Source: Alphaproteobacteria bacterium (GTDB taxonomy: Bacteria; Pseudomonadota; Alphaproteobacteria; Bin95). From it: DNA of 64,000 bases. Position numbers and translations under genes: made by a program. The notes below the pieces were generated by a model. That model did not search any database. It was not told where the DNA came from and saw only the letters and a program-made list of their open reading frames with translations. Below are positions 2,308 to 38,022 of this stretch, piece by piece. Positions within the stretch are counted from its first letter, which is position 1; every line of letters starts with the position of its first letter. The stretch is from NCBI GenBank assembly GCA_965215305.1, contig OZ244041.1, positions 3,836,510 through 3,900,509 on the forward strand, read 5' to 3'.

Positions 2308-3255
2308 TCACTCCGCCGCCAAATCCTTCTGGTCGTCGGCATTGTAGTTGGCGTCGTACCACCAGGCGAGGTGGTCCTCATAGATGACGGGCGGCCAGCG
2401 GGGCGGGTCGCCCGGGCCCGTGCAGGTGGGCGCGCAGCGGATTTCGGCATCGAGATTCGGGCCGAAGAAATAGGGGATGGCGTAGCGGTGCCGGTCCACA
2501 GGCGGCTGGGCGCGGTGCGGCGTGGACTTGTAGCGCCCATTCGTCCAGCGGTGCAGCATGTCACCCGTATTGACGACAAAACTGTCCTCGACGAAGGGCA
2601 CGTCCTCCCAGCCGCCGCCCGCGCGCCGGATCTGCAGGCCCGGCACGCCGGACTGCGCGAGGAAGGTCATGAAATTGGTGTCCGTGTGCGGCGCGATGCC
2701 GTAACGGCCCGGTTCCCGCGCGGCCGGCGGGTAATGCGAGAGCCGGAAGGAGAACTGGCTGCGGGTGAAATGGGGGTCGAACCAGTCCTCCGGCAGGCCG
2801 AGCGAGAGCGAGAGCGCCGGCAGCAGACCCACCGCCAGCCGGTCAATCGTCTCGCAATAGTCCAGCACCGTCTTGCGGAAGCCCGGCAAGGCCTCCGGCC
2901 AGCGGTTCGGCCCGGCGAAGCGCCGACCGGCAAGCGGATCGTCGGCCCCGCGCTCGCGCTTGATGAAGAAGGCCTCGTTCATGTCGGGTTTGGCCTCGGC
3001 TTCGCTCACGCGCGAGGTACGCACATTGTAGCGGGCCATCGCCATATAGCCGTTATTGTGCTCATTCATCAGCACGGCGTGCTTGGCGGCCTGCGGCTGG
3101 GCGTGGAAGCGCTCGGCCTCGGCGAACATGGCCCGGATCTTCTCCTGCGGCACGCCGTGGTTGACGGCAATGAAGAAGCCCACATGCTCCAGCGCGCCGG
3201 CGAGCGCCTCCGCCACCTCTTCGCGGCTCCGGGACAGGTCGATCAACGGGATCAT
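2308..3255 (-). CDS. 2OG-Fe(II) oxygenase superfamily protein (isopenicillin-N-synthase-like non-haem iron dioxygenase)
   Basis: N-terminus MIPLIDLS... resembles the DIOX_N domain. HTDTNF...H(RA) gives an HxD...H facial-triad pattern. The C-terminal jelly-roll region is present. The ATG overlaps the stop of the upstream amidase by 4 nt. Confidence 0.75.
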
Positions 3256-4679
3256 GGCGTATTCCTCCCTCCGTTGCCCCCCTCATTCCAGCCGACAACG
3301 ACCGGCTCCACCGCCTCCAGCAGCCAGCGCGCGAAACCGGTCATGCGGGCATCCGCGCCGGGCGCGCCCATGACCTGCGCGCCAACCGGCAGGCCGCCCA
3401 CGCCCATGAGCGGCATGGAGACAGCCGGCGCGAACAGGACCGAGGAGGGCGTGTTGAACACCGCATCGCCCGTCGGCCTCGCCATGAGCGGCTGGCCCGG
3501 CCTGTCGCCTTCCCAGATATGCGCGGGGCCGGGACAACTGGGCATCAACGCACCGTCCACGAGTTCGAGCGCGCGGGCCCAGGCCGCCTGCGCCGCCTCA
3601 CGCCCGGCCAGTGCGGCGTGGTAGTCCGCCACGGTCATGGCCTCGGCGGCCTCGAGCGATTGGCGCGCGCGGACGCTGATCGCCTCCGGTCCCATATCGG
3701 CCAATGCGCGATGCAGCCAGCGGTTCTCCCAACCGATGATCGCATAGCAGATGGCGGAAGCCCCCGCGAGTTCCGCATCGAGCGCCGCCAGAGCCGGGTC
3801 GTCCGCCGGGCGCAGCAGCGCGACACCCGCCGCGTCCACGCCTTCCAACAGGCGGCCAAATGCTTCCTTCGCCGCCTCGTCGAGCAGGGGCCAGCCCGCA
3901 CCCTCGATGACAAGGAGGCGGCCAGGCTTTTCGGCCGGCGGTGGGTCCGCCGGCCCGGCGAGGCCCCTGCGGCCGGGGTCGCCGCCGGCGCGCCTCGCGA
4001 TCTCGGCCGCCACGAGCCACATGTCTTCCACGGCATTGGCGTGGACGCCGTGGACGCTCTGGCTGCTCGTCTGTCGTTCGCCGCGGTTGATGGCGCCCTT
4101 GCTCGGCTTGAGCGCGACATTGCCGCAATAGCCCGCCGGGCGGATGATCGAGCCGCCCACCTGGCTGCCGATGGCGGCCGGCAGCATGCCCGCAGCCACG
4201 GCCGCCGCCGAGCCGGATGAGGAGCCGCCCGGCGTGCGTGCCGGGTCGAAGGGGTTGGTCGTCGGCCCCGGATGCGCGCCGCCGAGCTCCGAGGTCACGG
4301 TCTTGGCGAGGATGAGCGCGCCGGCCTCGCGCAGCGCAGCCACCGCCGCATTGTCGCGCTTCGGGAAATTGCCCCGATAGGCCCGGCAGCCCATCTCCGT
4401 CGGCATGGTCCGCGTTTCCAGCAGATCCTTGACGCCGACCGGCATGCCGTCCACGGGCGAAAGCGCCCGGCCCGCACGCCAGCGTTTCGCACTCGCATCG
4501 GCCGCCTCGCGCGCGCCCTCGATATCGGTCGCAACCAGAGCCTGAAGGACCGGCTCCCGCGCCTCGATGACCTCGAGGCAGCGCTCCAGATAGGCGCGCG
4601 GCGAATCCCCGCCGTCGCGGAAGGCCGGAAGCGCGTCATGGAAGGTCAGCCCGCGGAAGGTTCTTGGATCATATCGCAT
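3252..4679 (-). CDS. Amidase (amidase-signature family)
   Basis: Has the [14 protein letters not shown] signature and the Ser-cisSer-Lys region ([14 protein letters not shown]). 475 aa. It is translationally coupled to the downstream oxygenase. Confidence 0.85.
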
Positions 4680-4724
4680 AGCGGGAGCCTAGCACGTCGG
4701 CAGCATCTTCTTGCGCAAGAGTCG

Positions 4725-5093
4725 TCACGAAGACAGCGCCAGCGGAACAACCTTCGATTCTGCGACGATTCGGTCGCGGGTGAGCAGGGGGACATGATGA
4801 ACGACACTGGTTGCTGCGATGATCTCGTCCGCCGGGTCAGCCCGGAAGTCGAGGCGGACCGAAGCCCTGGTGACATCGATATCGACAGGCCAGATGTGCA
4901 ACGCCGCCAGCGCCCGCGCGACTTCACGATCGTCGAGGTCCATCTCCAGCCGCCCAAGCTGGATCAGCTTTGCAAGCTCCCACAGCACGATGGCCGATAT
5001 CGACCAGCTGTCCCGCGCCAGCAACGCGCGCTCGGCTGGTCGAAGCCCGCCGGTAAGGGCGAAAACGAGGATGTGGGTGTCAAGATTCAGCAA
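4725..5093 (-). CDS. PIN-domain toxin (VapC-like) of a type II TA module
   Basis: 122 aa. Starts MLNLDTHILVFAL... with PIN-like acidic residues. It overlaps the upstream small antitoxin gene by 14 nt. Confidence 0.65.
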   Translation of the reverse strand: MLNLDTHILVFALTGGLRPAERALLARDSWSISAIVLWELAKLIQLGRLEMDLDDREVARALAALHIWPVDIDVTRASVRLDFRADPADEIIAATSVVHHVPLLTRDRIVAESKVVPLALSS

Positions 5094-5304
5094 CGGCGTC
5101 CCATTCGATTCCCGTGCCGAGGATATCGCCCCGGATCCTCACCTTGTGGCTGAGACTGCCGATAAGTTCGGCATGCCGCCGCTCGTAGGGAAACAGGCGC
5201 GCGACCGGCCGTCCGCGCTTGGTGATGACCAGGCCGTCATCGCCCAAATCGTCCAGCAAGGCCAGACACTGCTCCTTGAACTTGGCCGCGCCGATTGTCT
5301 TCAT
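5080..5304 (-). CDS. Phd/YefM-type (prevent-host-death family) antitoxin
   Basis: 74 aa. MKTIGAAKFKEQCLALLDDL...GLVITKRGRPVARL matches the antitoxin N-terminal fold consensus. It sits directly upstream of the PIN toxin and overlaps it. Confidence 0.6.
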   Translation of the reverse strand: MKTIGAAKFKEQCLALLDDLGDDGLVITKRGRPVARLFPYERRHAELIGSLSHKVRIRGDILGTGIEWDAVAES

Positions 5305-5420
5305 CGTTCCGCCCCGGGTGAAGTGTCCATATTGTATGCTGGCCCCCTGTATCGGGGAGGACTATGCCGCTAGCTTGCATCCGGCCCTGTGTGGGCAATT
5401 CCGCCGATAGAGGATGACCG

Positions 5421-6593
5421 ATGCTGCGGTTCGGGACGGCCTGCCTTGCGCTTCTTCTGGCCCCGCTTGCGGCGGCGGCGGAGGGAAAGGAGCTGAAGCC
5501 GAAACTCGGGGATATCGGCGGGATCTCCTTTGCGGCACTGCCGGAGAGTCGCGAGACCTGTCACGTCGCCGTCGAGAGCCGGATTGCGCTCTGCCGCCGG
5601 AACACCAGCTTCGACGGCGATGGCGAGAACCGGGACCACGCCCGCTGCCTGCCGGTGTTCGAATGGCAAGCCGAGAGTTGCGCCCGGCATTTCCAGCGCC
5701 AGGCCGGCAAGTGCGACGGCATGGGTCCGGCGCACATCGACGGCTTCGCACGCTTCGGCTGCACCGTGGCGGCGGCCGGGGAGGACAATGGTGCGCCCGC
5801 CGTCGCGCCGGCCGACCGGGCAATGCAGGTGCGGGCGCGGGCCGATATCCGCAGCGGGCCCGGAACCGGCCATGCCAGGACCGGGGCGCTGGATGCGGGC
5901 CTGGAAGTGCGGGTGACAGGCATGGCCGGAGCGTGGCTCCGGGTCGAGGCGCCGGAGGGCCGCGAGGGCTTCGTCCACGGCTCGCTGCTCGTTCCGCGCG
6001 CTGCGCAGGAACGCGACCCGGCCGCCGGCCTCACGCCGGCATGCGCGGGCATGGACCGGGGTGCGGCCTGCTGGCAGCAGCTCGCCAACCCGCCGGGCTG
6101 CCGCTTCTGGTACGACTACCATGATCCGGGGGTAAGCTGGGCCTGGTCGGGCGCCTGCCGGAACGGCGTCGCCGACGGGCCGGGCGTGCTGGCGGCGACA
6201 GCGGGCGGCGGGCTGGCCGAACTCATAGGCGCATTCGGCGGCGGCAGGATGCAGGGCCTGTGGATTGTCCGCTATGCCGACGGCAGAATCGACCGGGGAC
6301 CCTATGTGGACGGCAGGAAGCACGGCCGATGGGTGGATCGCTACGCCAATGGCCGGGTGGACGAAGGCTCCTATGCCAATGGCCGCAAGCACGGGCGGTG
6401 GGTGGACCGCTACGCGAGCGGCAACCGCTTCGAATACGAGTACCGCAACGGCTCTGTGGACGGGCAGCCGGGCGTCTATGTCACCGGGAGCGGCGATCGC
6501 CATCCGGGGCGCTGGTCCGGCAATTGCTTCCTGGACGGCGAGGGCCGCCTGCTGGTCAGGCGCGGCGACAGTGAGGCCTGCCCGCCCGGATAA
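5421..6593 (+). CDS. Secreted protein with a Cys-rich N-terminal region, a bacterial SH3 (SH3b) domain and C-terminal MORN repeats
   Basis: Signal peptide MLRFGTACLALLLAPLAAAAEG. SH3b-like segment VRARADIRSGPGTGHARTGALDAGLEVRVTGMAGAWLRVEAPEGREGFVHGSLL. Tandem MORN units YADGRIDRGPYVDGRKHGRWVDRYANGRVDEGSYANGRKHGRWVDRYASGNRFEYEYRNG. Confidence 0.6.
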   Translation: MLRFGTACLALLLAPLAAAAEGKELKPKLGDIGGISFAALPESRETCHVAVESRIALCRRNTSFDGDGENRDHARCLPVFEWQAESCARHFQRQAGKCDGMGPAHIDGFARFGCTVAAAGEDNGAPAVAPADRAMQVRARADIRSGPGTGHARTGALDAGLEVRVTGMAGAWLRVEAPEGREGFVHGSLLVPRAAQERDPAAGLTPACAGMDRGAACWQQLANPPGCRFWYDYHDPGVSWAWSGACRNGVADGPGVLAATAGGGLAELIGAFGGGRMQGLWIVRYADGRIDRGPYVDGRKHGRWVDRYANGRVDEGSYANGRKHGRWVDRYASGNRFEYEYRNGSVDGQPGVYVTGSGDRHPGRWSGNCFLDGEGRLLVRRGDSEACPPG

Positions 6594-6683
6594 CGGGATA
6601 TGGCCCTTGCAGGCGATGGTCCCGCCTTGATCGGCCAGGGCGGAAATGTCATGCCTTTCGGCGGCGGAACGAGCGGAGCCAGT

Positions 6684-7994
6684 ATGCCGGACTATCTGAA
6701 GCGGGGCCGGACGGCGGCCGAGCGCGCGGAGGCGGACGCCAGGGTGCGCGCCGCCGTCGAGGCGATTCTGGAGGATATCAGCGCACGGGGCGACGAGGCG
6801 GTGCGCGCCCTCTCGGAGAAATTCGACAACTGGTCGCCGGAGAGCTTCAGCCTCTCGGAGCAGGAGATCGAGCAGGCGCTTTCCCGGGTGGCGAAGCGCG
6901 ACCTCGATGACATCCGCTTCGCGCAGGCCCAGGTGCGCGGTTTCGCGGAGCATCAGCGCGCCGCACTCCGGGACATCGAGGTCGAGACGCTGCCGGGCGT
7001 GGTGCTGGGGCACCGCAACATCCCGGTGAACTCGGTCGGCTGCTATGCGCCCGGTGGCAAATATCCCATCGTCGCGTCGGTGCATATGAGCGTCGTGACC
7101 GCCAAGGCCGCCGGCGTGCCACGTATCGTGGCGGCGGCCCCTCCCGCGCAGGGCGGCGGCCCGCACCCGGCCATGGTCGCCGCCATGCATATGGGCGGGG
7201 CGGACGAAATCCTGGTGCTGGGCGGCGTGCAGGCCGTGGGCGCGATGGCGCTCGGCACGGAGACGATCGCGCCAGTCGATATGCTGGTCGGCCCTGGCAA
7301 TGCCTTCGTAGCCGAGGCGAAGCGCCAGCTTTTCGGGCGGGTCGGCATCGACCTGCTGGCGGGCCCGACCGAGACCTTGCTCATCGCCGACGACACGGTG
7401 GACGCCGAGCTTTGCGCGACCGACCTCCTGGGCCAGGCCGAGCACGGGCCGGACAGCCCCGCCATACTGGTGACGAATTCGCGCGCGCTCGCCGAAGCCA
7501 CCATCGCCGAGGTCGAACGGTTGCTGGCGATCCTGCCGACCGCCGCCAATGCGGGCGCCGCCTGGCGGGATTACGGCGAGGTCATCCTTTGCGCGGATCA
7601 CGACGAAATGCTGGCAGAGGCGGAGCGCATTGCGTCCGAGCATGTGCAGGTGATGACCGACCGCGACGAGTGGTATCTGGAGAACATGACCTGCTACGGC
7701 GCGCTCTTCCTCGGGGCCCGCACCAATGTCTCCTACGGCGACAAGGTGATCGGCACCAACCACACCCTGCCGACTCGCCGCGCAGCGCGCTATACGGGCG
7801 GCCTCTGGGTCGGCAAGTTCATCAAGACGCACACCTACCAGCGTATCCTGACCGACGAGGCTTCGGTCCGGCTCGGCGAGGTCTGCTCGCGACTCTGCAT
7901 GCTGGAGGGTTTCGTCGGCCATGCCGAACAGGCGAATATCCGCGTCCGCCGTCTCGGCGGCCGCAACATCCCCTATGGCGCGGCGGCGGAATGA
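6684..7994 (+). CDS. Histidinol-dehydrogenase-family (HisD-like) NAD-dependent four-electron alcohol dehydrogenase paralog
   Basis: HisD-family core motifs are present: [32 protein letters not shown]. The MPDYLK start at 6684 has GGAG 6 nt upstream. The 6651 and 6600 starts are also possible. Its catabolic context suggests it is not the biosynthetic hisD. Confidence 0.75.
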
Positions 7995-9061
7995 CGGCCC
8001 TGCCTACCGGCGCGATCGATTGCGACCTGCATCCGGCGCCGCCGTCGGTCTCGGCGCTGATGCCTTATCTGGAGCCGCACTGGGCGGATGCGGCGGGGCA
8101 TCGGGGGCTGCACGAGCTGGAAACCATCGCCTGGCCGCCGAATGCGCCGCTCTCCTGCCGGCCGGACTGGCGGGACGGGGAGGCGAAGCCCGGCAGCAAT
8201 CCCGAACGCCTTGTTCGGGACGCGGTTGACGGGTTCGGCACGCGCTATGCCATCCTCAACTGCCTCTACGGCGCGCCCATGATCTACTCCGAGGACATGG
8301 CGGCCGGCTTCGCCCGCGCGCTGAACGACTGGCTGAAGGCCGAGTGGCTGGACCGCGACCCGCGCCTGCGCGCCTCCATCCTCGTGCCGCCCCACGCCCC
8401 GGACCTCGCAGCGGAAGAGATCGAGCGGGCCGGGGAAGACCGGCGGTTCGTGCAGGTGCTGCTGCCGGTCATGGGCGAGACGCCGCCCGGCCGGCGCGTC
8501 AACTGGCCGATCTACGCCGCGGCCGAGCGGGCGGGCCTGCCGATCGCCTTCCATGCCGGCTCCGCCTACCGGCATCCGCCAACGCCGGTCGGCTGGCCCT
8601 CCTATCTCGCCGAGGACTATGCCGCCCAGGCGACCGCCTTCCAGACGGCACTCACCAGTCTCATCGCCGAGGGCGTGTTCCGGAAGTTCCCGGCGCTTAC
8701 CGTCGTCTTCGCGGAATCGGGCGTCGCCTGGCTGCCCGCGCATCTCTGGCGGTTGACGAAATACTGGCGCGGGCTGCGCATGGAGATCCCCTGGGTGGAC
8801 CGCAGCCCGGAGGAAATCGTACGCGAGCATGTCCGTTTCACCGTCCAGCCCTTCGATACACCGGAGGAGCCGGAAGCGCTTGCCCACCTGCTCGATCATC
8901 TGGGCTCGGACGAGCTGCTGCTGTTCGCCACCGACTACCCCCACTGGCAGTTCGACGGCATGGGCGCGCTGCCGGAAGGCTTGCCAGCGGATCTGGTTCA
9001 GCGTATCGCTGTGGACAATCCGCTTGCCACCTATCCGCGCCTCGGGGAGGGAGAGCCATGA
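7991..9061 (+). CDS. Amidohydrolase-2 (PF04909-type TIM-barrel metal-dependent hydrolase/decarboxylase) family protein, paralog 1
   Basis: N-terminal metal-ligand motif IDCDLHP. C-terminal [10 protein letters not shown]. 356 aa. The ATG overlaps the HisD-like stop as ATGA. Confidence 0.75.
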
Positions 9062-10176
9062 CGGTAAAGGTTCTGGACCGCCCGTCGGAGGAGATGCCGG
9101 CCGAAGCCGCACTCCGCATCGCCGATTGCGACATCCATCCGAGCCCGAAATCGCTTGAGCGCGAGATCTACCCCTTTCTGGAGAAACGCTGGCAGCGCCA
9201 TATGGAGCGCTATGGCGCGCGTCCCCGCCAGCCTTTCCTGAACGGTCCGGCCTATCCGAAAGGCCAGCCGGACGCCGCCAGGCGCGACGCCTATCCGCCC
9301 GCGGGCGGTCGGCCCGGCAGCGACCTCGCCTTCATGCGCGAACAGCATCTTGACCCGAACAATGTCGGCTTCGGCGTGCTGAATCCGCTCAAATCCGGCC
9401 AGGGCCTCCAGAATCTCGATTTTGCGGATGCCTATTGCCGCGCGATCAACGACTGGCAGCTCGCCTTCTGGACCCGCGAGGAGCCGCGCCTCAAGGCGTC
9501 CATCGTCATCCCCTATGAGGATGCGGCGGCGTCGGTTGCTGAGATCGAGCGCTGCGCCGGCGAGGAGGATTACGTCCAGGTCTTCATGCTGAACCGGACG
9601 GCCGAGCCGATGGGCCAGCGCCGCTACTGGCCGATCTACGACGCCACGGCCGCGGCCGGCCTGCCGCTCGCGGTCCACGCCTTCGGCTTCGGCGGCGCGC
9701 CGATCACCAGCGGCGGCTGGCCCTCCTACTATATCGAGGACATGACCGGCCATGCCCAGGCGAGCCAGGCGCTGCTCGCCAGCATGATCTTCGAGGGTGT
9801 ATTCGACCGGCTGCCGACTCTCAAGATCGTGCTGATCGAGAGCGGCTTCGGCTGGCTGCCGGCGCTTTGCTGGCGGCTTGACCGGGTGTGGATGCGGATG
9901 CGGGACGAACTGCACCGCTGCAAGCGTCGGCCGAGCGAGATCGTTCGCGAGCAGGTCTTCCTCACCACGCAGCCGATGGAGGAGCCGAGCCGCCCGCGTC
10001 AGCTCGTCGAATGCATCGAATGGATCGGCTGGGACAAGCTGCTGTTCGCGACCGACTATCCGCATTGGGACTTCGACCAGCCGGACCGGGTGCTTCCCTC
10101 CTGGGTGGGCGCCGAAAAGCGCCGGGCTTTCTTCCGGGACAACGCGCTCGGGGTTTACGGCCGGCAAATGCCGTGA
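9058..10176 (+). CDS. Amidohydrolase-2 family protein, paralog 2
   Basis: IADCDIHPSP ... ATDYPHWDFD, paralogous to the upstream gene. 372 aa. ATGA overlap with the upstream stop. Confidence 0.75.
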   Translation: MTVKVLDRPSEEMPAEAALRIADCDIHPSPKSLEREIYPFLEKRWQRHMERYGARPRQPFLNGPAYPKGQPDAARRDAYPPAGGRPGSDLAFMREQHLDPNNVGFGVLNPLKSGQGLQNLDFADAYCRAINDWQLAFWTREEPRLKASIVIPYEDAAASVAEIERCAGEEDYVQVFMLNRTAEPMGQRRYWPIYDATAAAGLPLAVHAFGFGGAPITSGGWPSYYIEDMTGHAQASQALLASMIFEGVFDRLPTLKIVLIESGFGWLPALCWRLDRVWMRMRDELHRCKRRPSEIVREQVFLTTQPMEEPSRPRQLVECIEWIGWDKLLFATDYPHWDFDQPDRVLPSWVGAEKRRAFFRDNALGVYGRQMP

Positions 10177-10571
10177 CCCGGCATGTCGTGGCGCCGGTCT
10201 CCGCGTTTCCGCCGGGGACACGGCGTTGCGTGGTGCTGGATGGCCGGCGGATTGCCCTGTTCAATGTCGGCGGGCGCTATTTCGGCCTGCTCGACCGCTG
10301 CCCGCATCAGGGCGGCCCGCTGTCGGAAGGCGTCCTGACCGGGCTGGTCGAGGCAGGCGCGCCCGGCGCCTACAGCTTCTCGCGTCCCGGCGAAATCCTG
10401 CGCTGCCCCTGGCATGGCTGGGAGTTCGACCTCGCCACCGGCCAGAGCCGCTTCGACCCCCGCCGTCACCGCACCCGCGCCTTCCGCGTCTCCGCTGCTT
10501 CGGGCGAGGAGCTCAGGGCCGAAACCGTGCCCGTCCGCGTCGAGGAGGACTATGTGGTCGTGGAGACCTGA
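10173..10571 (+). CDS. Rieske [2Fe-2S] ferredoxin-like protein
   Basis: Has both Rieske boxes, CPHQGGPLSEG and CPWHGWEF. About 132 aa. A GTG start overlaps the upstream TGA as GTGA. No in-frame ATG is present near the N-terminus. Confidence 0.7.
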   Translation: MTRHVVAPVSAFPPGTRRCVVLDGRRIALFNVGGRYFGLLDRCPHQGGPLSEGVLTGLVEAGAPGAYSFSRPGEILRCPWHGWEFDLATGQSRFDPRRHRTRAFRVSAASGEELRAETVPVRVEEDYVVVET

Positions 10572-10585
10572 GGCGGTGGGGCAGC

Positions 10586-10996
10586 CTACATCCAGTTTTC
10601 GACAGCCAGTTCTTCGAACGCCCGGAAGTCGGCGACGTTCGACGTCACCAGAATCAGCCCGTTGGCGTGAGCTATTGCAGCGATCTGGCCGTCCACGAAG
10701 GGCGGTGTCCTGCCGGCGGCAGTCAACCGCGCACGCTCCCGAGCGTGCCAATCGGCCGCCTGCCAGTCATAGTCCAGGACCGGGAAGCTTCGCAGCACCA
10801 CATCTTCGATATAGCGCTCTATTGCCTCTCGACGGTGCGACGGCGCGAGCCTCGAACAGCCGAACCGCAGCTCGTGCCAGACCGGAGCAGGGATTGCGAT
10901 CTCGCCTTCGTGTTCGTGCAGACGCCGGATGACCCCTGCGGCGGGCCGTGGCCGCAAGGGTTCCGACACGGTATTGGTGTCCAGGAGATACTTCAC
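10586..10996 (-). CDS. vapC: VapC-family PIN-domain toxin
   Basis: 136 aa starting MKYLLDTNTVSE, the classic VapC N-terminus, with conserved acidic residues. Confidence 0.75.
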   Translation of the reverse strand: MKYLLDTNTVSEPLRPRPAAGVIRRLHEHEGEIAIPAPVWHELRFGCSRLAPSHRREAIERYIEDVVLRSFPVLDYDWQAADWHARERARLTAAGRTPPFVDGQIAAIAHANGLILVTSNVADFRAFEELAVENWM

Positions 10997-11003
10997 TGGG
11001 CGG

Positions 11004-11285
11004 CTATAGCCTTACCTCGCGGCCGGCTGTTTTCTCACGCACATCGGCAAACAACTCGTCGGGGTCCAAGGCAAGTCCCTCAAGCCCAACATTGCTTGCA
11101 AACTCCCGGTAAGCATCGCCGAAGGTCCGCCGCAGCGAGGAGAGCCGCTCAAACTCTCGGCATCCGATCAGGATCGCTACGGGCGCACCCCGGCGGGTAA
11201 GCTCCACCGCCTTGCCGATCTCTGCGTCTCTAACCAGAGACGAGAGGTTGCGCCGGGCTTCAGCTATCGAATGTCGATCCATCAT
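11004..11285 (-). CDS. Type II antitoxin (Phd/YefM-like) paired with VapC
   Basis: About 93 aa from MMDRHSIAEARRNLSSLVRDAEIGKAVELTRRGAPVAILIG. It ends 7 nt upstream of vapC. The longer ORF-track start at 11393 is considered an extension. Confidence 0.6.
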   Translation of the reverse strand: MMDRHSIAEARRNLSSLVRDAEIGKAVELTRRGAPVAILIGCREFERLSSLRRTFGDAYREFASNVGLEGLALDPDELFADVREKTAGREVRL

Positions 11286-11364
11286 CGCCTCTCCTCCATG
11301 TCCATCAATATGTACATGATAGGCAATGCCGCAACGAAGAGAAGCCCCGAACCTGCCGACGGGG

Positions 11365-12732
11365 TCACGCCGGGTCGCGGACGGCGTTTGCAACCCGGAT
11401 GATGGCGGCGAGGCTTCGCTCCACGTCCTCGTCCGTAGTGGCCCAGGACGAAACGCTGATGCGCATCGCGGCCCGGCCGCGCCATCGGGTGCCCCCGCAC
11501 CAGCAGGTCCCGTCTCGCTGCACGCCCCCGATGACCGCCCCGGTCGTCCGGTCGTCGCCGAACGCGGCGAGCACCTGGTTCAGCACGACATCGTTGAGGA
11601 TCTCGAAACCGGCCTCCTGCAGCCCGGCCGCAAAACGCCGCGCCTGGCGGCAGTTGCGCGCCACCAGCGCTGCCAGCCCCTCGCGACCGAGCGACGCCAG
11701 CGCCGCCCAGACCTCGAGGCCGCGCATGCGCCGGCTGGTCTCCGGCGTGAATTCGAATGGCTCCCGGTTCTCCGGGTCGGGCAGATAGTCCGCCTGCACC
11801 GACATCGCGCCGCGCAACGCCCCGGCATCGCGCACGATGGCGAGGCCGCTGTCATACGGCACATTGAGCCATTTATGCGCATCGACCGCCCAGGAGTCGG
11901 CCCGCTCGATGCCCTGCGCCAGCGGCGCGAATTCCGGGGCACTCCTCGCCCAGAGGCCGAAGGCGCCGTCCACATGGACCCGGACATCGCGGGCACGCAC
12001 CGCCTCGCAGATTTGGCCTACCGGATCGAACGCCCCGCTGTTCACATTCCCCGCCTGGACGCAGACAATGGCCGGCCCCTCCAGGTCGGGCAGCGCCTCT
12101 GCCCGCATGCGGCCCTGGCTGTCGACCGGCACCCGGACAACCCGGTCCCGCCCGAGTCCGAGCATGCCCAGCGCCTTGAACAGCGTGGCATGCGCCTGCG
12201 CGCCCACGACAACAGTGATTTCGGGGGCCGCATGGAGCCCGTCCCGGTCCGCATCATGGCCGTGTGCGAGCAACACAGAGCGGCGGTCGGCGGCAAGCGC
12301 GGCGAAATTGGCCATGGTCGCGCCGGTGACGAAGGCGGTTCCTGCATCCGCCGGCAGGTCCAGCGCTTCCAGAACCCACCTTGCCGCGACCCGCTCGATG
12401 GCAGCGCCCACCGGCGAGCTCACTTCGCTGAAGGCATTCTGGTCCCACGCAGCCGCGAGCCAGTTCGCCATGAGCGGTGCCGGCAGGACGCCGCCGGTGA
12501 CGAAGCCGAAATAGCGCGGGCCCGCGCTCGCAACCGTTCCCTGTCCCCCGATTTCGTCGAGCCGGGCGAGAATCGCGGACGCAGGCAGCCCTGTCTTCGG
12601 CAGCCGGCCACCCAACGCCGGCGCCAGCTCGCTTGCCCCGCGCGACGCGGCCACGGGGCGTTCGGGAAGCGAATCCAGAAACCGCGCCGCGCACCGGACC
12701 GTCTCGTCCAGCAGTTCCCGCATGCCGTTCAT
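11365..12732 (-). CDS. PLP-dependent group II decarboxylase (aspartate-aminotransferase fold)
   Basis: 455 aa from MNGMRELLDETV. The PLP-lysine motif is VDAHKWLNVPYDSG. The upstream 88 codons of the ORF-track frame look like a GC-rich extension. Confidence 0.75.
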   Translation of the reverse strand: MNGMRELLDETVRCAARFLDSLPERPVAASRGASELAPALGGRLPKTGLPASAILARLDEIGGQGTVASAGPRYFGFVTGGVLPAPLMANWLAAAWDQNAFSEVSSPVGAAIERVAARWVLEALDLPADAGTAFVTGATMANFAALAADRRSVLLAHGHDADRDGLHAAPEITVVVGAQAHATLFKALGMLGLGRDRVVRVPVDSQGRMRAEALPDLEGPAIVCVQAGNVNSGAFDPVGQICEAVRARDVRVHVDGAFGLWARSAPEFAPLAQGIERADSWAVDAHKWLNVPYDSGLAIVRDAGALRGAMSVQADYLPDPENREPFEFTPETSRRMRGLEVWAALASLGREGLAALVARNCRQARRFAAGLQEAGFEILNDVVLNQVLAAFGDDRTTGAVIGGVQRDGTCWCGGTRWRGRAAMRISVSSWATTDEDVERSLAAIIRVANAVRDPA

Positions 12733-12796: not shown

Positions 12797-14170
12797 TCAG
12801 GGGGCGGAAAACTCCAGGCTGGCCTTGAGGCCCGGCGGGTCCTTGCCGGGCGCCGCATCCACCAGCACCAGCCGGGCATTGTGGCGCCGTGCGGCGGCGG
12901 CGGCCAGCGCGAGGCCGAGGCCGTTGCCCGGCAGGTGCCGACTCGGATCGAGGCGCACGAAACGGTCAATCGCGCGCTCCCGGTCCTCGGGCGCAATGCC
13001 GGGGCCGCTGTCCGCTACGGATACGCCGGAGGGCCCGACAGCGATGGAGACCCGCCCGCCCGCCGGTGTGTATTTGAGCGCATTGTCGATGAGATTGGAG
13101 AGCGCCTGGCCCAGCAGTTCGGGCTGTCCTTCGATTTCCGGCGCGGGCCCCGCCTGCGCGAATTCGAGCGCGACGCCGCGTTCCTCCGCCAGCGGCGCAT
13201 GGAGTTCGACCAGATCGTCCACGAGCCCGGCCAGGTCGATGGGCAGGGTTGGCGCCGGGCCCGAGTCCGCGCGCGCGATGGCCAGCAGGGTGTTGAAGGT
13301 CTCCATGAGCTCCCGCACCTCTGCCACCGACCGCTCCAGCGCGTCGCGATAGGCCGCGGCTTTCGCTGGCCCACGCAGCACGTCCTCCAGCCGCGCATGC
13401 AGGCGGGCCAGCGGCCGGCGAAGGTCATGCGCGATATTGTCGGTCACCTCTCGCAGCTCGTTCATCAGAACCTCGATACGCGCCAGCATCCGGTTGACGC
13501 TTGTCGCAAGGTCGTCGAACTCGTCGCCGCGCCCCGTCACCGGCACCCGGCGCGACAGGTCCCCGTCCTTCATGATCCGGCGGCCGGTCTCGTCCACCGC
13601 CTCCGCGCGCCGGCGCAGATCGCGGGAGACCAGCGCGCCGGCCGCCAGGCCCGCCAGCACGATCAGCCCTCCGGCCGCGGCGCCGAAAATTACGATCCGG
13701 CGGCTGAGCGCGATCTCCTCGTCGATATCGTGCGCAACCAGCAGCCGGAACCCGTCGGGAAGGTTCGCGACATAGGCGCGGGCCGTGTGCCGGTGGGGCG
13801 GCTCGCCGTCATGTGCGCGGCGATAGTGGAAATCGTGCCACGCGCCGGGTTCGCGCGCGTCGGCCGGCCAGGCCGCGAGATTGCCGGCAGCCTTGCGGCC
13901 CCGGCGGTCCACCAGCAGATAGAGCGACCGGCCCTCCTGCCGGCTGCGCCCGTCGATCACCGCGCTGAGCCGGAGCGGTCCGAACGCCCGGTAATGCTCC
14001 GCCAGCCCCTCGAGTTCCGCTGCCACGATCTGTCGGCTCTCGATTTGCAGCGCCTCCAGCGACTCGCTGTAGAGATAGCGGAAACCGGCAAAGGCGAAGA
14101 CCGCCAGCACGGCCAGGTAGCCCAGCGTCAGCCGGAAGGCCGAGGTGCGCAGCAGTTCAGTCGGCCGCAA
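12797..14170 (-). CDS. Sensor histidine kinase (two TM helices, HAMP, HisKA, HATPase_c)
   Basis: Contains the H-box ELREVTDNIAHDLRRPLARL, the N-box LSNLIDNALKYT and the G-box DSGPGIAPEDRERAIDRF. Confidence 0.85.
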   Translation of the reverse strand: MRPTELLRTSAFRLTLGYLAVLAVFAFAGFRYLYSESLEALQIESRQIVAAELEGLAEHYRAFGPLRLSAVIDGRSRQEGRSLYLLVDRRGRKAAGNLAAWPADAREPGAWHDFHYRRAHDGEPPHRHTARAYVANLPDGFRLLVAHDIDEEIALSRRIVIFGAAAGGLIVLAGLAAGALVSRDLRRRAEAVDETGRRIMKDGDLSRRVPVTGRGDEFDDLATSVNRMLARIEVLMNELREVTDNIAHDLRRPLARLHARLEDVLRGPAKAAAYRDALERSVAEVRELMETFNTLLAIARADSGPAPTLPIDLAGLVDDLVELHAPLAEERGVALEFAQAGPAPEIEGQPELLGQALSNLIDNALKYTPAGGRVSIAVGPSGVSVADSGPGIAPEDRERAIDRFVRLDPSRHLPGNGLGLALAAAAARRHNARLVLVDAAPGKDPPGLKASLEFSAP

Positions 14171-14843
14171 GGCGGTATCCGACGCCCCGAACGGTATGCA
14201 GCAGCGGCCGGTCGAAGCCCCTGTCGATCTTGGCCCGCAGCCGCGAGATCTGGGCGTCGATCACATTGGTGCCCGGGTCGAAGCGGTAATCCCAGACCTG
14301 CTCCAGCAGCATGGTCCGCGTGACGACCCTGCCAGCATGTTCGGCCAGCACTTCCAGCAGGCGGAATTCCTTGGGCTTGAGCGGCAGCGGCACTCCGGCG
14401 CGGTACACGGCGCGCTCCAGGCGGCGGATTTCGAGGTCGCCGATGGTGACATCGGTTTCCGCCGCGACCGGCGCACGCCGCCGGGCGAGCGCCTCCACCC
14501 GCGCGCGCAGTTCTGCAAAGGCGAACGGCTTGACGAGGTAGTCATCTCCACCGGCGTTCAGCCCCTTCACGCGGTCGCCGACGCTGCCGAGCGCGGTGAG
14601 GAACAGCACCGGCGTCATGTCGCCCCCGGCGCGCAGGGTCCGCACGAGGCTTAGCCCGTCCAGCTTCGGCAGCATGCGGTCCACCACCAGCACGTCGAAG
14701 CCGCCGCTCTCGGCCGCAGCGAGCCCGTCCGGGCCGTTTGCAGCGGTCTCGACGCGGTGCCCGTCCTCGCGGAGGCCTCTGGCCGTATAGGCCGCCGTCT
14801 CGCTGTCGTCTTCGATAATGAGGATATCGAGCATGAGCTGCAC
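14157..14843 (-). CDS. OmpR-family response regulator
   Basis: Receiver domain (DILIIEDD...VLVVDRMLPKLDG). Winged-helix DNA-binding domain (LTPKEFRLLEVLAEHAGRVVTRTMLLEQVW). 14-nt overlap with the kinase gene. Confidence 0.85.
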   Translation of the reverse strand: MQLMLDILIIEDDSETAAYTARGLREDGHRVETAANGPDGLAAAESGGFDVLVVDRMLPKLDGLSLVRTLRAGGDMTPVLFLTALGSVGDRVKGLNAGGDDYLVKPFAFAELRARVEALARRRAPVAAETDVTIGDLEIRRLERAVYRAGVPLPLKPKEFRLLEVLAEHAGRVVTRTMLLEQVWDYRFDPGTNVIDAQISRLRAKIDRGFDRPLLHTVRGVGYRLAAD

Positions 14844-14914
14844 TTTAGCATGACGGGGAAAGGGCCGGACGCCCGCCGGCGGGAGGAGGAACCGGCGAGC
14901 GTCCGGGGCGGGGA

Positions 14915-16330
14915 TCAGGCCGTGTCGAGCGGCAAGGCTACGAACCGGTCCCGGTTTTCCCGCCTGAGAAGCATGACGACGACCTCACGGCCGTCGGCTC
15001 TGAGCTCGGCAACGATCTCCTTCGCCTCACCCGGTGTCTCGACCGCACGACGGTCCACCGAAAGGACGACATCGCCCTTGCGCACGCCCTTGCGGGCCGC
15101 CGGGCCGCCGGGCGCCACATCCGCGATGACGACCTTGCCGTCCGCCTGGCCGAGATCGAGGCCGGCGAAACGCCCGGCAGGGGCAGCCGCGTTCACGGGC
15201 CGGCTCTCTGCCGGCATCGCGGCAAGCACCGCTTCGACACGCGCCTCCGCGCCGTCCCGCCAGAGCTTGAGCGCCACGGTTTCGCCCGGGTCGCGTTCGG
15301 CGATCATGCGCGGCAGGCGGCCCGTATCGACGACGCGCCGGTCGTCCACCTCGAGGATGACATCGCCCGCCTTCAGGCCGGCCTTCGCTGCCGGGCCGGA
15401 GGGATCAACCGACGCCACCAGCGCGCCCGCTGGGCCTTCCAGGCCCAACGCGGCCGCCAGGTCGTCGTCGATATGCTGGATGCGGACACCGAGACGCCCG
15501 CGCTCGACCGCGCCATTCGCCTTCAGCTCCGCCACGATGTCGCCCGCCAGCGCCGCCGGCACGGCGAAGCCGATGCCGACATTGCCGCCGTTCGGGGAGA
15601 AGATCGCCGTATTCACGCCGATGACCTCGCCCTGGAGGTTGAAGGTCGGGCCGCCCGAATTGCCTCGGTTGATGGGCGCGGAAATCTGTAGAAAGTCGTC
15701 ATAGGGACCGGCTCCGATCTGGCGTCCGCGCGCCGAAACGATGCCGGCCGTGGCGGAATGGCCGAGGCCGAAGGGATTGCCGAGCGCCACCACCCAGTCG
15801 CCGACCCGGACCTGTTCGGAATCGCCGAACACGACATGTGCGAGCGGCTCATCCGCTTCCACCTTGACGACGGCAAGGTCCGTCTTCGGGTCCACACCGA
15901 CGAGGCGCGCCGGGAGCTTCTGCTTGTCGTGCAAGGTGACAGCGATCTCCTTCGCGCCCGCCACGACATGGTGGTTGGTGACGATATGGCCGTCGGCCGA
16001 GATGACGAAGCCGGAGCCCACGCCCGTGACCGGCCGCCAGTCGCGCCACTTTTCCGGCCAGGGCGCACGGTCGCCGAAGAAGCGACGCATGAATTGCTGC
16101 GGGCCGTCCGGCACCTCGGTCTTCGCGCTTTTTTCGACCCGGATGTTCACAACGGCGGGCGTCACCCGCTCGATGGTTCCGGCCAGACTCGGCAGCGCGG
16201 CGGCGGCGGGCGGCGCGGCGCTCTGGAACGCGCCGACATGCCAGGCGCTGCCGGCCGCGAGCGCGCCGCCAAGCAGGATGGCGGCGAACGCGCGTCGGGC
16301 CGGTCGGCGAACAAACAGTCTGGTCTGCAT
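14915..16330 (-). CDS. Do/DegP/HtrA-family periplasmic serine endoprotease with two PDZ domains
   Basis: Signal peptide. Trypsin-like core (GSGFVISADGHIVTNHHV...GNSGGP). Two PDZ segments. 471 aa. Confidence 0.85.
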   Translation of the reverse strand: MQTRLFVRRPARRAFAAILLGGALAAGSAWHVGAFQSAAPPAAAALPSLAGTIERVTPAVVNIRVEKSAKTEVPDGPQQFMRRFFGDRAPWPEKWRDWRPVTGVGSGFVISADGHIVTNHHVVAGAKEIAVTLHDKQKLPARLVGVDPKTDLAVVKVEADEPLAHVVFGDSEQVRVGDWVVALGNPFGLGHSATAGIVSARGRQIGAGPYDDFLQISAPINRGNSGGPTFNLQGEVIGVNTAIFSPNGGNVGIGFAVPAALAGDIVAELKANGAVERGRLGVRIQHIDDDLAAALGLEGPAGALVASVDPSGPAAKAGLKAGDVILEVDDRRVVDTGRLPRMIAERDPGETVALKLWRDGAEARVEAVLAAMPAESRPVNAAAPAGRFAGLDLGQADGKVVIADVAPGGPAARKGVRKGDVVLSVDRRAVETPGEAKEIVAELRADGREVVVMLLRRENRDRFVALPLDTA

Positions 16331-16416: not shown

Positions 16417-17397
16417 TTACGATCCGGCAAGGAAACGGGTGAGCAGTCCCCGCGCGGCCGCCGCCGGCGCGGCGCGGCCCGCCGCCACCTCCTTCTCAAG
16501 CGTTTCAGCAAGCGCGCTGAGCATGTCATCGCGCCGGAGCGCCTCCAGCGCGCCCTCAGAGATCTCGTTCCACATCCAGGCGGTCGCCTGCCGGGCGCGG
16601 CGTTGTTCGAGGCCCGCCCCCACCGCCTCGCGGAAGGCGCCGACCGCATCCCATACCTCCGGGATGCCGGCACCGGTCAGCGCCGAGCAAGTCTGCACCC
16701 GGACCGTCCAGCCGGGCGCGGAGGGTCGCAGCAGGTGGATCGCCGCTTCATAGTCGGCTGCCGTGCGCCCCGCCTGATCCTCGAGTTCGCCATCCGCCTT
16801 GTTGACCAGCACAAGGTCCGCCAGCTCGACGATGCCGCGCTTGATGCCCTGCAGTTCATCGCCGCCCGCCGGCAGGAGCAGCAGCAGGAACATGTCCACC
16901 ATGTCGGCGACCGCGGTCTCCGACTGGCCGACCCCGACAGTCTCTACCAGCACCACATCGAAGCCGGCGGCCTCGCAAGCCAACATCGCCTCGCGCGTCC
17001 GCCGCGCGACGCCGCCGAGCGTCACCCCGGCCGGCGAGGGGCGGATGAAGGCGGCGCTGTTCCGCGCCAGCGCCTCCATGCGCGTCTTGTCACCCAGGAT
17101 CGAGCCGCCGGAGCGCTTCGAACTCGGATCGACCGCCAGCACCGCGACCCGGTGCCCCGCTTCGATGACATGGCGGCCGAATGCCTCGATGAAGGTGGAT
17201 TTGCCGACCCCCGGCGCGCCGCTGACACCGAGGCGCACGGACCGCCCGGCCTCCGGCAGCAGCACCTCCAGAAGCGCGTCTGCCCGCTCCCGATGGTCAG
17301 GGCGCGAGGATTCGATCAGTGTGATGGCCCGCGCAAGCGCCCGGCGTTCGCCCGCCAGCACTGCCGCCGCGAGGCGGGAAGGATCGGTCTCCTCCAT
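16417..17397 (-). CDS. meaB: Methylmalonyl-CoA mutase-associated GTPase MeaB (ArgK-like)
   Basis: P-loop GVSGAPGVGKST. G-domain LVNKAD. It sits immediately downstream of the mutase gene. Confidence 0.85.
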   Translation of the reverse strand: MEETDPSRLAAAVLAGERRALARAITLIESSRPDHRERADALLEVLLPEAGRSVRLGVSGAPGVGKSTFIEAFGRHVIEAGHRVAVLAVDPSSKRSGGSILGDKTRMEALARNSAAFIRPSPAGVTLGGVARRTREAMLACEAAGFDVVLVETVGVGQSETAVADMVDMFLLLLLPAGGDELQGIKRGIVELADLVLVNKADGELEDQAGRTAADYEAAIHLLRPSAPGWTVRVQTCSALTGAGIPEVWDAVGAFREAVGAGLEQRRARQATAWMWNEISEGALEALRRDDMLSALAETLEKEVAAGRAAPAAAARGLLTRFLAGS

Positions 17398-17423
17398 GCG
17401 CGGCGGTGCCGGTCCCGCGCCGC

Positions 17424-19574
<2,151 letters not shown>

Positions 19575-32484: not shown

Positions 32485-33237
32485 TCAGTAGATGCTGAAC
32501 GGGAAATACCGGGCGTTGATCGTCTTGTAGGTGCCGTCGGCGAGGATCGCCTGGATCGCCCGGTTCAGGCGCCGACGCAGCGTCTCGTCCTCCTTGCGCA
32601 CAGCAATGCCGATGCCCTCGTCGAGACGGTACGGCGCGCCCGCATAGCTAAAGTCCGCACCCTCGGCGCTCCCCAGCCACTTCCAGAAGCCGAGCGCGTC
32701 GCCGAACGCCGCGTCCACCCGGCCTTCGATCAGCGCCCGGTCGAGCGCCCCCTGGTCGGTATACAGCCTTATGCCGGCAAATTTCGCCCGGTTGTCCTCC
32801 AGCCAGTCCGAGGCGATGGTCGCGCGCATCGCGCCGACGGTCCGGCCCGCTGTGTCTTCGGGATCGAAACCTGAGCCCTTGCGGGCGACGAAACGAACCC
32901 CGCTGCTGTAATAGCGCTCGGTGAACGCGACCAGCTGGCGGCGCTTCTCGGTGATCGACATGCTGGAGACGATGGCGTCGAACTTCCCGGCTCGCAGCGC
33001 CGGGATCAGCCCCTCCCAGTCCTGGCGGACGAACGCGCACTCGATCTTCATCTGCGCGCAGAGCGCCCGGGCGATGTCGATGTCGAAGCCGGTGAGCCGG
33101 TCGGCATCGGCGACCTCGCTGAAGGGCGGATAGGCCGGATCGACGCCGACGCGGAGTTTCTCCCGAGCCGCCTCGTCCCCGAACACGGGCGCGCCAGTCA
33201 GCAGAACGAGGATCAGCGCCGCGAGCCACTGTCTCAT
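32485..33237 (-). CDS. Periplasmic solute-binding protein family 3 (polar amino-acid type), orphan (no cognate permease/ATPase adjacent)
   Basis: Signal peptide MRQWLAALILVLLTGAPVFG. SBP_bac_3 fold (LRVGVDPAYPPFSE...). 219-nt gap to the upstream GS-like gene. Confidence 0.75.
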   Translation of the reverse strand: MRQWLAALILVLLTGAPVFGDEAAREKLRVGVDPAYPPFSEVADADRLTGFDIDIARALCAQMKIECAFVRQDWEGLIPALRAGKFDAIVSSMSITEKRRQLVAFTERYYSSGVRFVARKGSGFDPEDTAGRTVGAMRATIASDWLEDNRAKFAGIRLYTDQGALDRALIEGRVDAAFGDALGFWKWLGSAEGADFSYAGAPYRLDEGIGIAVRKEDETLRRRLNRAIQAILADGTYKTINARYFPFSIY

Positions 33238-33456
33238 GGCCATCTCCGAAGCCAAGGTGTTCCTAGCGCACCAGCTTACGCCGCCGGCACGGCCAGGGAC
33301 AGCCCCGCCGCCGGTCCCCGTCGGTCAGGGAATGACGACGCGCAAACGGCTGAAACGGACGGTTCTCCTGGGACCGGGTGTTCGATGCCCTGACTCGGCT
33401 ATGACGCGGAAATCTACAAACACCGGTCTGCCTGGGCCACTAATGTCCGGACCGGC

Positions 33457-34908: not shown

Positions 34909-34914
34909 GCCCGC

Positions 34915-36234: not shown

Positions 36235-36256
36235 GGTTCGGCTCCCTTGTGCACAA

Positions 36257-37815: not shown

Positions 37816-38022
37816 CGCGACCGGTCCTCGATCCCGGGGTTGTATCATCGTCCATCGCTCGAAACCGATGAGCGCGTGACCGGCTTTCGACAGACACGGC
37901 GCGGCGCAGCCCCTGCGACATGTCAAGGAATGTCATGCTGCGTCATGGTCTTTATGCGCATCACGCATAGCACCTGTCCGTTTCCGGCATATCTATCGGT
38001 CCTCCACCTGCTCCGGACTCGA

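Follow-up and report, generated by a model that had tools for sequence, protein, structure and literature searches.

Recognition of the amidohydrolase-related dinuclear oxygenases (AROs) dates back no further than 2019-2026, and of the approximately 17,000 sequences predicted to belong to them just a handful have a known reaction. They were found bioinformatically through small Rieske genes located beside genes of the PF04909 family (PMC10811679), and their signature consists of an N-terminal D-x-H and a C-terminal D-x-P-H-x-D/E motif, both reported to be missing in all PF04909 hydrolases and decarboxylases that have been characterised (PMC13154177). The only characterised heteromeric ARO is AibH1H2, which forms, with the Rieske ferredoxin AibG and the reductase AibF, the three-component 2-aminoisobutyrate (Aib) monooxygenase of Rhodococcus wratislaviensis C31-06 (PMC7782822). 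Structures of AibH1H2 have been solved (PDB 6M1W, 6M2I and 8FUL-8FUO), and subsequent work established that its cofactor is of the Mn/Fe type (PMC10401708). In the Aib pathway, a methyl group is converted to hydroxymethyl by AibH1H2 and then to carboxyl by AibD1 and AibE, before decarboxylation dependent on pyridoxal 5'-phosphate (PLP) by AibC (PMC7782822). Here we analysed a 64,000-nt stretch of alphaproteobacterial DNA, hereafter the window, that carries at positions 6684-10571 a four-gene operon encoding a HisD/HpsN-family dehydrogenase, two PF04909 proteins (called here AH2-A and AH2-B) and a small Rieske protein. We propose that this operon probably specifies an AibH1H2G-type oxygenase and its ferredoxin, coupled in this lineage to an alcohol-to-acid dehydrogenase.

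Organisation of the four-gene operon

The operon consists of four co-directional open reading frames (ORFs), all on the + strand and all giving a clean translation (coordinates are positions within the window). The dehydrogenase gene (6684-7994, 436 aa; PF00815 441 bits, TIGR00069 431 bits) is followed by AH2-A, the putative AibH1-like ARO alpha' subunit (7991-9061, 356 aa; PF04909 146 bits), AH2-B, the putative AibH2-like alpha subunit (9058-10176, 372 aa; PF04909 157 bits), and the gene of a small AibG-like Rieske [2Fe-2S] ferredoxin (10173-10571, 132 aa; PF00355 51 bits). Successive genes overlap by 4 nt (ATGA at 7991, ATGA at 9058 and GTGA at 10173), so that the tight coupling of the four genes described in a previous sequence-only reading of this DNA was reproduced in all its coordinates and junctions. 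The start codon of AH2-B at 9058 is preceded by a strong Shine-Dalgarno-like sequence, GGGGAGGGAG. For the dehydrogenase, ATG 6684 was preferred to the start of the longest ORF at 6600 because the length of its best 120 homologues, 435-436 aa, fits the former and not the latter. The G+C content is about 68% across the whole window, and simple promoter and terminator scans in and around the operon returned nothing above chance. A convergent PIN-toxin gene ends 14 nt past the stop codon of the Rieske gene.

AH2-A and AH2-B are related to the two subunits of AibH1H2

The comparison of both PF04909 proteins with solved structures revealed that the best matches of AH2-A are the AibH1 chains 6m1w_A, 6M2I chain A and 8ful_A (E = 2e-84, 42% identity) and that the best match of AH2-B is the AibH2 chain 6m1w_B, also chain B of 6M2I and 8FUL (E = 4e-83, 40% identity). 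These best matches are reciprocal, each window subunit pairing with one Aib subunit: AH2-A scored 287 bits with AibH1 versus 209 with AibH2, and AH2-B scored 283 bits with AibH2 versus 174 with AibH1. The decarboxylases and the lactonase of the PF04909 family (ACMSD, gamma-resorcylate decarboxylase, LigW, IDCase and LigI) gave weak matches to the two proteins, with E-values from 1e-7 to 1e-19, and the monooxygenases are thus ahead of them as nearest solved structures by about 65 orders of magnitude. The two window paralogues are 38.5% identical to each other, compared to 28% for AibH1 and AibH2.

The ARO signature was looked for as a D-x-H motif on strand 1 of the TIM barrel and a D-x-P-H-x-D/E loop located about 200 or more residues into the protein. 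AH2-B carries D25-I-H27 inside a predicted strand (residues 21-26) and the C-terminal loop D333-Y-P-H336-W-D338; the DYPHWD loop was found in 70 out of 70 AH2-B orthologues from related loci, and both motifs are invariant in the orthologues examined. The catalytic subunit of AibH1H2 has a D, H, H, E, D, H ligand set and a second-sphere Asp, as does AH2-B: residues D25, H27, H207, E261, D333 and H336 align with all six ligands of AibH2 (D25, H27, H211, E265, D337 and H340), and D338 is the counterpart of the second-sphere Asp342, whose mutation cripples AibH2. The partner subunit AibH1 keeps five ligands without the second-sphere Asp. Likewise, D12, H14, H188, E242 and D315 of AH2-A align with the five single-site ligands of AibH1 (D24, H26, H201, E255 and D328), and the AH2-A loop reads DYPHWQ, the Q replacing the second-sphere Asp (AibH1 has DYPHKH). 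This loop ends in Q in 77 of 84 AH2-A orthologues, and none has D or E at the last position; alpha' subunits with DYPHWQ would consequently slip past the published ARO motif filter. The D-C-D-[LI]-H motif that the sequence-only reading had singled out near the N terminus was seen in both proteins and is kept in their orthologues. It was rightly regarded as a telling feature, since its D-x-H part is one half of the ARO signature, and the metal-binding residues, whose integrity had been raised as a question, proved to be intact (six out of six dinuclear-site ligands in AH2-B, five out of five AibH1-type ligands in AH2-A).

The predicted fold leads to the same family. An AlphaFold2 model of AH2-B (pLDDT 82, pTM 0.86) was compared to the PDB with Foldseek, and ranks 1 to 20 were all occupied by ARO chains (SfbO, AibH2, AibH1 and the 8SM7-8SM9 proteins; E from 1e-28 to 1e-21, TM about 0.8), the decarboxylases appearing only from rank 21 onwards (E = 1e-14, TM about 0.62). 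The Rieske-associated low-potential AROs described by the Rittle laboratory in 2024-2026 (SfbO, 8SM6, and 8SM7-8SM9) thus share with AH2-B the signature motifs as well as the fold.

From these homologies, ligand sets and motifs, together with the fold and the co-occurrence data presented below, we infer with high confidence that AH2-B and AH2-A are the alpha and alpha' subunits of an ARO. AH2-B would be the catalytic dinuclear monooxygenase subunit. Given that AH2-A retains the five single-site ligands and has lost the second-sphere Asp/Glu, it is very probably a non-catalytic structural partner binding a single metal, as proposed for AibH1. The sequence-only reading had suggested that the two paralogues form a heteromer; the reciprocal best matches to both chains of 6M1W/8FUL and the adjacency of the two genes in 75 of 79 related loci make such an assembly very probable, putatively of the alpha2alpha'2 type like AibH1H2. 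The window would therefore represent a clean second example of the two-paralogue ARO architecture, and the annotation of both PF04909 genes as "amidohydrolase" is misleading.

As regards the metal, the Mn-dependent (low-potential) ARO class is distinguished by a hydrophobic gamma1, a hydrophilic gamma2 and an aromatic gamma4 position (Table 1, PMC13154177). The gamma1 and gamma4 residues of AH2-B, read straight from the motifs, are Ile26 and Trp337 and fit this class; gamma2 is Asn109, placed by alignment to a Thr of SfbO and by its position at the end of the predicted strand 103-108, and gamma5, a proposed ferredoxin-contact position, is Phe339. According to these published criteria, the AH2-B site is predicted to prefer Mn/Fe. 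The SfbO-type enzymes share with the window system the hydrophobic gamma1, the hydrophilic gamma2, the aromatic gamma4 and gamma5 and an adjoining Rieske ferredoxin gene; they crystallise as homo-oligomers, whereas the window system is composed of two paralogues with a predicted heteromeric assembly. An SfbO-like sulfonate site in AH2-B was considered and rejected: the two sulfonate-binding arginines of SfbO, Arg232 and Arg235, correspond to Met229 and His232 in AH2-B, and neither being conserved, a sulfonate substrate receives no support despite the HpsN-like dehydrogenase encoded upstream.

The sequence-only reading had placed the PF04909 pair downstream of the dehydrogenase: the HisD-like enzyme would produce an acid, which the pair would then decarboxylate non-oxidatively, or else the pair would open a lactone, leaving the Rieske gene as an orphan. 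This scheme draws on the fact that PF04909 does include LigW, gamma-resorcylate decarboxylase, ACMSD, IDCase and LigI, to which the weak matches mentioned above were obtained. A decarboxylase or lactonase of this family would have a site with one metal or none, an H-x-H, E-x-H or other motif in place of D-x-H on strand 1, and no D-x-P-H-x-D/E loop; AH2-A and AH2-B each possess D-x-H and D-Y-P-H. The presence of N- and C-terminal motifs reported missing in characterised PF04909 hydrolases and decarboxylases (PMC13154177), the six dinuclear-site ligands of AH2-B, the rank of monooxygenases as nearest solved structures by both E-value and fold, and the conservation of the Rieske gene with the pair all argue against it, and we consider it highly improbable. 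The order of steps that it implied, alcohol to acid first and the PF04909 reaction second, is likely reversed, with hydroxylation coming first as it does in Aib degradation.

The Rieske protein is the predicted electron donor of the oxygenase

The two cluster-binding segments of the Rieske protein are C43-P-H45 and C78-P-W-H81, and among solved structures it is closest to CarAc and BphF, two ferredoxins of dioxygenases. In 63 of 79 related loci, a Rieske gene is found no further than 3 kb from the AH2-A/AH2-B pair, and a co-occurrence of Rieske proteins with AibH2-like proteins has been reported at 90% (PMC10401708). The sequence-only reading found it unexpected that a stand-alone Rieske ferredoxin should lack an oxygenase partner. 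The gene is no orphan, because the PF04909 pair itself is the predicted oxygenase, of which the Rieske protein is the putative dedicated electron donor. The order of the three genes in the window, alpha', alpha and Rieske, is that of aibH1-aibH2-aibG (PMC7782822).

The dehydrogenase appears to belong to a separate clade of the HisD/HpsN family

Among solved structures, the dehydrogenase is closest to HpsN, the (R)-2,3-dihydroxypropanesulfonate 3-dehydrogenase of Cupriavidus pinatubonensis (8v35, 408 bits), the best HisD match being that of Brucella (4g07, 258 bits). Residues Q251, H254, D353 and H413 align with the Zn ligands Gln248, His251, Asp352 and His411* of HpsN, and E319 and H320 with its catalytic Glu318 and His319; the D353-K354 pair and H360 are aligned as well, so that the Zn ligands and the Glu-His and Asp-Lys pairs of HpsN are all conserved. 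HpsN performs a 4-electron oxidation of an alcohol to an acid, and the window enzyme is predicted from its intact active site to carry out a Zn- and NAD-dependent reaction of the same kind, from primary alcohol to carboxylate. The alcohol-to-acid oxidation proposed for the HisD-fold enzyme in the sequence-only reading agrees with this active site, and the family position is on the HpsN side.

The loop that discriminates between the two described groups reads G-S-A-P-L in HisD and G-R-Y-A/S-H in HpsN, the last His of the latter (His126) binding the sulfonate (PMC11382572). In the window enzyme it reads G125-K-Y-P-I129, which is neither motif. The position of the sulfonate-recognising His126 is occupied by Ile129, and across the clade by Met, Ile or Leu, a hydrophobic last residue that is common to the window enzyme and HisD (E. 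coli 1K75, Brucella 4G07), which otherwise share the fold and the catalytic residues. A loop of the GKYP[MIL] type was found in the best 120 homologues of the dehydrogenase, 76-94% identical and distributed over several alphaproteobacterial families. Judging from these sequences, the G-K-Y-P-[MIL] proteins seem to make up an uncharacterised clade of the HisD/HpsN family, the third beside HisD and HpsN themselves; their members are annotated in the sources either as histidinol dehydrogenase or as sulfopropanediol 3-dehydrogenase, although they carry the diagnostic motif of neither.

These data bear on the alternative that the three other genes are as assigned above and that the HisD-like gene is functionally unrelated to them. 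In one version it is simply the biosynthetic HisD, and indeed the protein passes the NCBIfam hisD model TIGR00069 with 431 bits against a cut-off of 244. Against this version stand the 408 bits obtained with HpsN compared to at most 258 with any HisD, the GKYPI loop in place of GSAPL, and the genomic context: orthologues in five other lineages are found beside genes for a short-chain dehydrogenase/reductase (SDR), a GFO/IDH/MocA oxidoreductase, a LacI or GntR regulator and ABC transporters, and no his gene adjoins the dehydrogenase gene either in the window or in these five lineages. Regarding the sulfonate function, none of hpsO, hpsP, suyAB, cuyA and xsc occurs among the annotated neighbours in the window.

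In four of these other lineages (L090-L093; dehydrogenase at about 7001-8308 or 6001-7308), the dehydrogenase gene is followed by that of a 254-255-aa SDR, with an overlap of 4 nt in L091-L093 and of one base in L090. This conserved two-gene module recalls hpsN-hpsO, without the sulfonate-binding His. In L089, the sole PF04909 gene close to such a dehydrogenase orthologue (14060-15154) was evaluated as an independent pairing of a HisD-like gene with an ARO and discarded: its product has D-I-H-S-H and no D-x-P-H loop, and is of the classical hydrolase/decarboxylase type.

Distribution of the operon genes and weight of the dehydrogenase link

In metagenomes, close homologues of AH2-A number in the thousands, the best 120 being all at least 59% identical to it. 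A scan of one genome per species detected at least 593 AH2-A-type loci, in hosts including Bradyrhizobium japonicum, B. liaoningense, B. betae, Bosea, Rhodopila, Acetobacteraceae, Hyphomicrobiaceae and Stellaceae; this ARO clade, predicted to be heteromeric, is widespread in soil Alphaproteobacteria. The counts out of 79 given in this work refer to the related loci with enough flanking DNA, and the conservation of neighbours was assessed by ORF calling, all-against-all clustering and tblastn across 88 related loci. In the latter analysis, the genes kept across taxa were confined to the AH2-A/AH2-B/Rieske trio, joined in some cases by a reductase gene, a HcaD-type FAD ferredoxin reductase gene adjoining the pair in 8 of the 79 loci. 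Most other recurrent clusters reflect Bradyrhizobium synteny (an ABC exporter with HlyD, and CinA-like, MFS, LysR and TcuAB-like genes).

The sequence-only reading had named a lack of joint conservation of the four genes elsewhere as grounds for refuting its proposal. The AH2-A/AH2-B/Rieske trio recurs, but the HisD-like gene fails this check: it adjoins the trio in just 3 of the 88 loci, all three being among the 79 with enough flanking DNA. These three (L006, L007 and L009) belong to the lineage of the window itself, with AH2-A proteins at least 81% identical. In L007 and L009, both 90% identical relatives, the stop codon of the dehydrogenase gene still overlaps the start of AH2-A by exactly 4 nt.

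A coupling of oxygenase and dehydrogenase in one pathway is, in our estimation, at best an even proposition and perhaps somewhat less, and several observations weigh against it. In L006, where AH2-A is 81% identical, two small ORFs separate the dehydrogenase gene from AH2-A. In the five other lineages no ARO gene is found near the dehydrogenase orthologue, which is translationally coupled to a 255-aa SDR in four of them. The trio itself occurs elsewhere in widely differing contexts. With regard to the proposal as a whole, no gene for a ferredoxin-NAD+ reductase, which would play the role of AibF, is present in or adjoining the operon, the nearest being 26 kb away, and the operon includes no regulator gene. 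The PLP-dependent decarboxylase that might complete the pathway is encoded on the opposite strand, and a PIN/Phd toxin-antitoxin insertion separates it from the operon. Finally, sequence identities of 40-42% with AibH1 and AibH2 are too low for their substrate to be transferred.

Several of these points speak for a second version of the alternative introduced above, in which the HisD-like gene belongs to an independent catabolic module co-transcribed with the trio by an accident of synteny: adjacency is confined to one lineage and is interrupted in L006, the usual partner of the dehydrogenase clade is an SDR and not an ARO, and the trio evidently does without the HisD-like gene in at least 76 other loci. 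The preservation of the exact overlap in L007 and L009 argues in the other direction, as does the chemistry, since a hydroxylase yields an alcohol. Taking both versions together, we regard a HisD-like gene unrelated to the oxygenase as a real possibility, although we would not bet on it.

The contexts of the trio in other taxa are as follows. In Bosea and Roseomonas marmotae it is found with genes for a LacI regulator, a sugar ABC transporter and a GH63-like hydrolase, in Hyphomicrobiaceae with a TAXI-TRAP transporter and in Bradyrhizobium with CinA-like, MFS and LysR genes; in several Acetobacteraceae, apparent multi-component ABC uptake systems are located directly upstream. A published analysis of AibH2-like genes likewise noted that their surroundings say little about function and differ from the aib cluster (PMC10401708).

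Some arrangements deserve description. In L005 (6742-10596) and in L012 and L016 (at about 10001), from Roseomonas marmotae and Bosea, the trio forms the tail of an operon headed by the LacI regulator and the sugar-type ABC transporter genes, followed by the GH63-like gene, which overlaps AH2-A by 4 nt. The GH63-like enzyme resembles mannosylglycerate or glucosylglycerate hydrolases, which makes for a puzzling association of a glycoside hydrolase with an ARO. Some genomes carry tandem AH2-A/AH2-B pairs in two or three copies, 46-66% identical to the window proteins (L011, 4207-14414; L028, 7308-12180); a single Rieske gene is located between the two pairs of L028, and some of the copies in L011 look split, perhaps by frameshifts.

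Proposed pathway and comparison with Aib catabolism

In the pathway that we propose for the coupled oxygenase and dehydrogenase, a reductase encoded outside the operon would transfer electrons from NAD(P)H to the Rieske protein, from which they would pass one at a time to the two-metal site of AH2-B, which is probably of the Mn/Fe type. This site would activate O2 and insert one oxygen atom into a C-H bond, while AH2-A, binding its single structural metal, would scaffold the complex. With less confidence, the product may be a primary alcohol whose neighbouring carbon bears an amino or hydroxyl group, because the substrates of the HisD/HpsN family carry such groups. The HisD-family enzyme would then oxidise this alcohol by four electrons to the acid, one enzyme taking the place of the two Aib dehydrogenases; it is placed after the oxygenase because a hydroxylase produces an alcohol, with the Aib pathway as precedent. 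The PLP decarboxylase encoded nearby might finally strip off the new carboxyl group.

If the two activities are truly coupled, the operon limits the oxygenase product to a primary alcohol beside an amino- or hydroxy-bearing carbon, and the lineage-specific joining of the trio to a HisD/HpsN-type dehydrogenase constitutes a rare neighbourhood clue to the product of such an oxygenase. More speculatively, and doubtful as it must be, two orphan modules, the heteromeric ARO clade and the G-K-Y-P-[MIL] dehydrogenase clade, could have been joined here into a compact "methyl to carboxyl" route for a small amino or hydroxy compound, in which case the operon would offer the first handle on the substrate of both clades.

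The sequence-only reading could match the gene combination to no characterised pathway. Three of the genes do match AibH1-AibH2-AibG; the HisD-like gene falls outside this match, and a literature search for the four-gene combination found nothing. As in the aib cluster, an alcohol-oxidising function is encoded alongside the oxygenase, but the aib cluster uses HIBADH-type and aldehyde dehydrogenases where the window has a single HisD-family enzyme. The operon contains no orthologue of aibD1, aibE, aibC, aibA, aibT or aibR, and neither a HIBADH-type dehydrogenase, an aldehyde dehydrogenase, SHMT, an alanine dehydrogenase, an amino-acid permease nor a LysR gene was found among the annotated neighbours in the window, so that the aib accessory genes have only functional analogues there (the HisD-like enzyme and a PF00282 decarboxylase). 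AibF, an FMN/2Fe-2S reductase, is likewise missing from the operon, related loci having the HcaD-type FAD reductase instead. The host of AibH1H2 is an actinobacterium, that of the window an alphaproteobacterium.

It could nevertheless be asked whether the operon is an Aib catabolic operon proper, the trio being the orthologous Aib hydroxylase, the HisD-like enzyme replacing AibD1 and AibE in the conversion of alpha-methylserine to aminomethylmalonate, and the PF00282 protein replacing AibC. The reciprocal best matches and the common gene order are in line with this idea; a 2-amino alcohol such as alpha-methylserine suits HisD-family chemistry, non-orthologous candidates for all three downstream functions are located nearby, and AH2-B and AibH2 have in common a T-G-H segment where SfbO has its sulfonate-binding arginines. 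Yet the identity is just 40-42%, no AibF-type reductase, amino-acid permease or alanine dehydrogenase is encoded nearby, relatives at 57-66% identity reside in sugar-transporter and glycosidase, TRAP or unrelated contexts, and published analysis found AibH2-like neighbourhoods to differ from the aib cluster (PMC10401708). Aib itself as the substrate is thus unlikely.

Candidate partners encoded outside the operon

Two genes of the window are tentative participants in the proposed oxygenase-dehydrogenase pathway. The first encodes a group II PLP-dependent decarboxylase (PF00282; 11365-12729, - strand), for which searches of NCBIfam and the PDB for a subfamily gave weak, non-specific matches only. 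The arrangement of operon, toxin-antitoxin genes and PF00282 gene is the same in L007. In L008 (6518-12362), genes for a GMC oxidoreductase and a PF00282 PLP decarboxylase, AH2-A and AH2-B are co-directional, the PF00282 gene lying directly upstream of the pair and next to the GMC gene; the three functions thus come together here in a second, non-orthologous case. At the usual Rieske position L008 has only a 61-aa ORF without a Pfam match, and its opposite strand carries genes for a TauD-family oxygenase and an acyl-CoA-dehydrogenase-like protein.

The second is a HcaD-type FAD ferredoxin-NAD+ reductase (36257-37492, - strand; NF042949 308 bits, PF07992 and PF14759), which is 41% identical to the reductase encoded beside the AH2-A/AH2-B pair in 8 related loci. 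As a missing component of the operon it was rejected, given that it adjoins its own 2Fe-2S ferredoxin and LigXa-type oxygenase genes; it is thus no more than a candidate for a function in trans.

This reductase is part of a second complete oxygenase system (33457-37926, - strand), made up with a glutamine-synthetase-like ligase (33457-34908, - strand; sub-threshold matches to models of glutamine synthetase types III and I and of gamma-glutamylputrescine synthetase), a LigXa_C-type Rieske oxygenase (34915-36390, - strand) and a 2Fe-2S ferredoxin (37492-37926, - strand). The system is flanked by genes for an amino-acid-binding protein (32485-33255) and an Ldh_2-family dehydrogenase (38112-39095), and its layout resembles that of gamma-glutamyl-amine catabolic clusters.

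Other genes surrounding the operon

Directly upstream of the operon, with a gap of 90 nt, a gene at 5421-6593 encodes an SH3_3-domain protein of 390 aa; it is present in L007 and not in L006, where the HisD-like gene comes directly after the amidase region. The preceding 740 bp or so (4680-5420) contain no convincing gene. Further upstream, an amidase gene (3252-4679) and a gene for a 2-oxoglutarate/Fe(II) oxygenase of the DIOX_N type (2308-3255) overlap by 4 nt on the - strand (2308-4679), divergent from the operon side. This pair is kept alongside the operon in L006 and L007 and could be part of the same pathway or independent of it.

On the other side, genes for a PIN-domain toxin and a Phd/YefM antitoxin (10586-11393, - strand) separate the operon from the PLP decarboxylase gene. 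L007 has this toxin-antitoxin pair too, followed at a short distance by genes for a DDE transposase and a terminase-like protein, which suggests local mobile-element traffic. Finally, the genes at 16417-19574 on the - strand encode a fused methylmalonyl-CoA mutase (MM_CoA_mutase and B12-binding domains, 716 aa) and a MeaB GTPase chaperone; they are located downstream of genes for a DegP-like protease and a two-component system, and are ordinary housekeeping genes.

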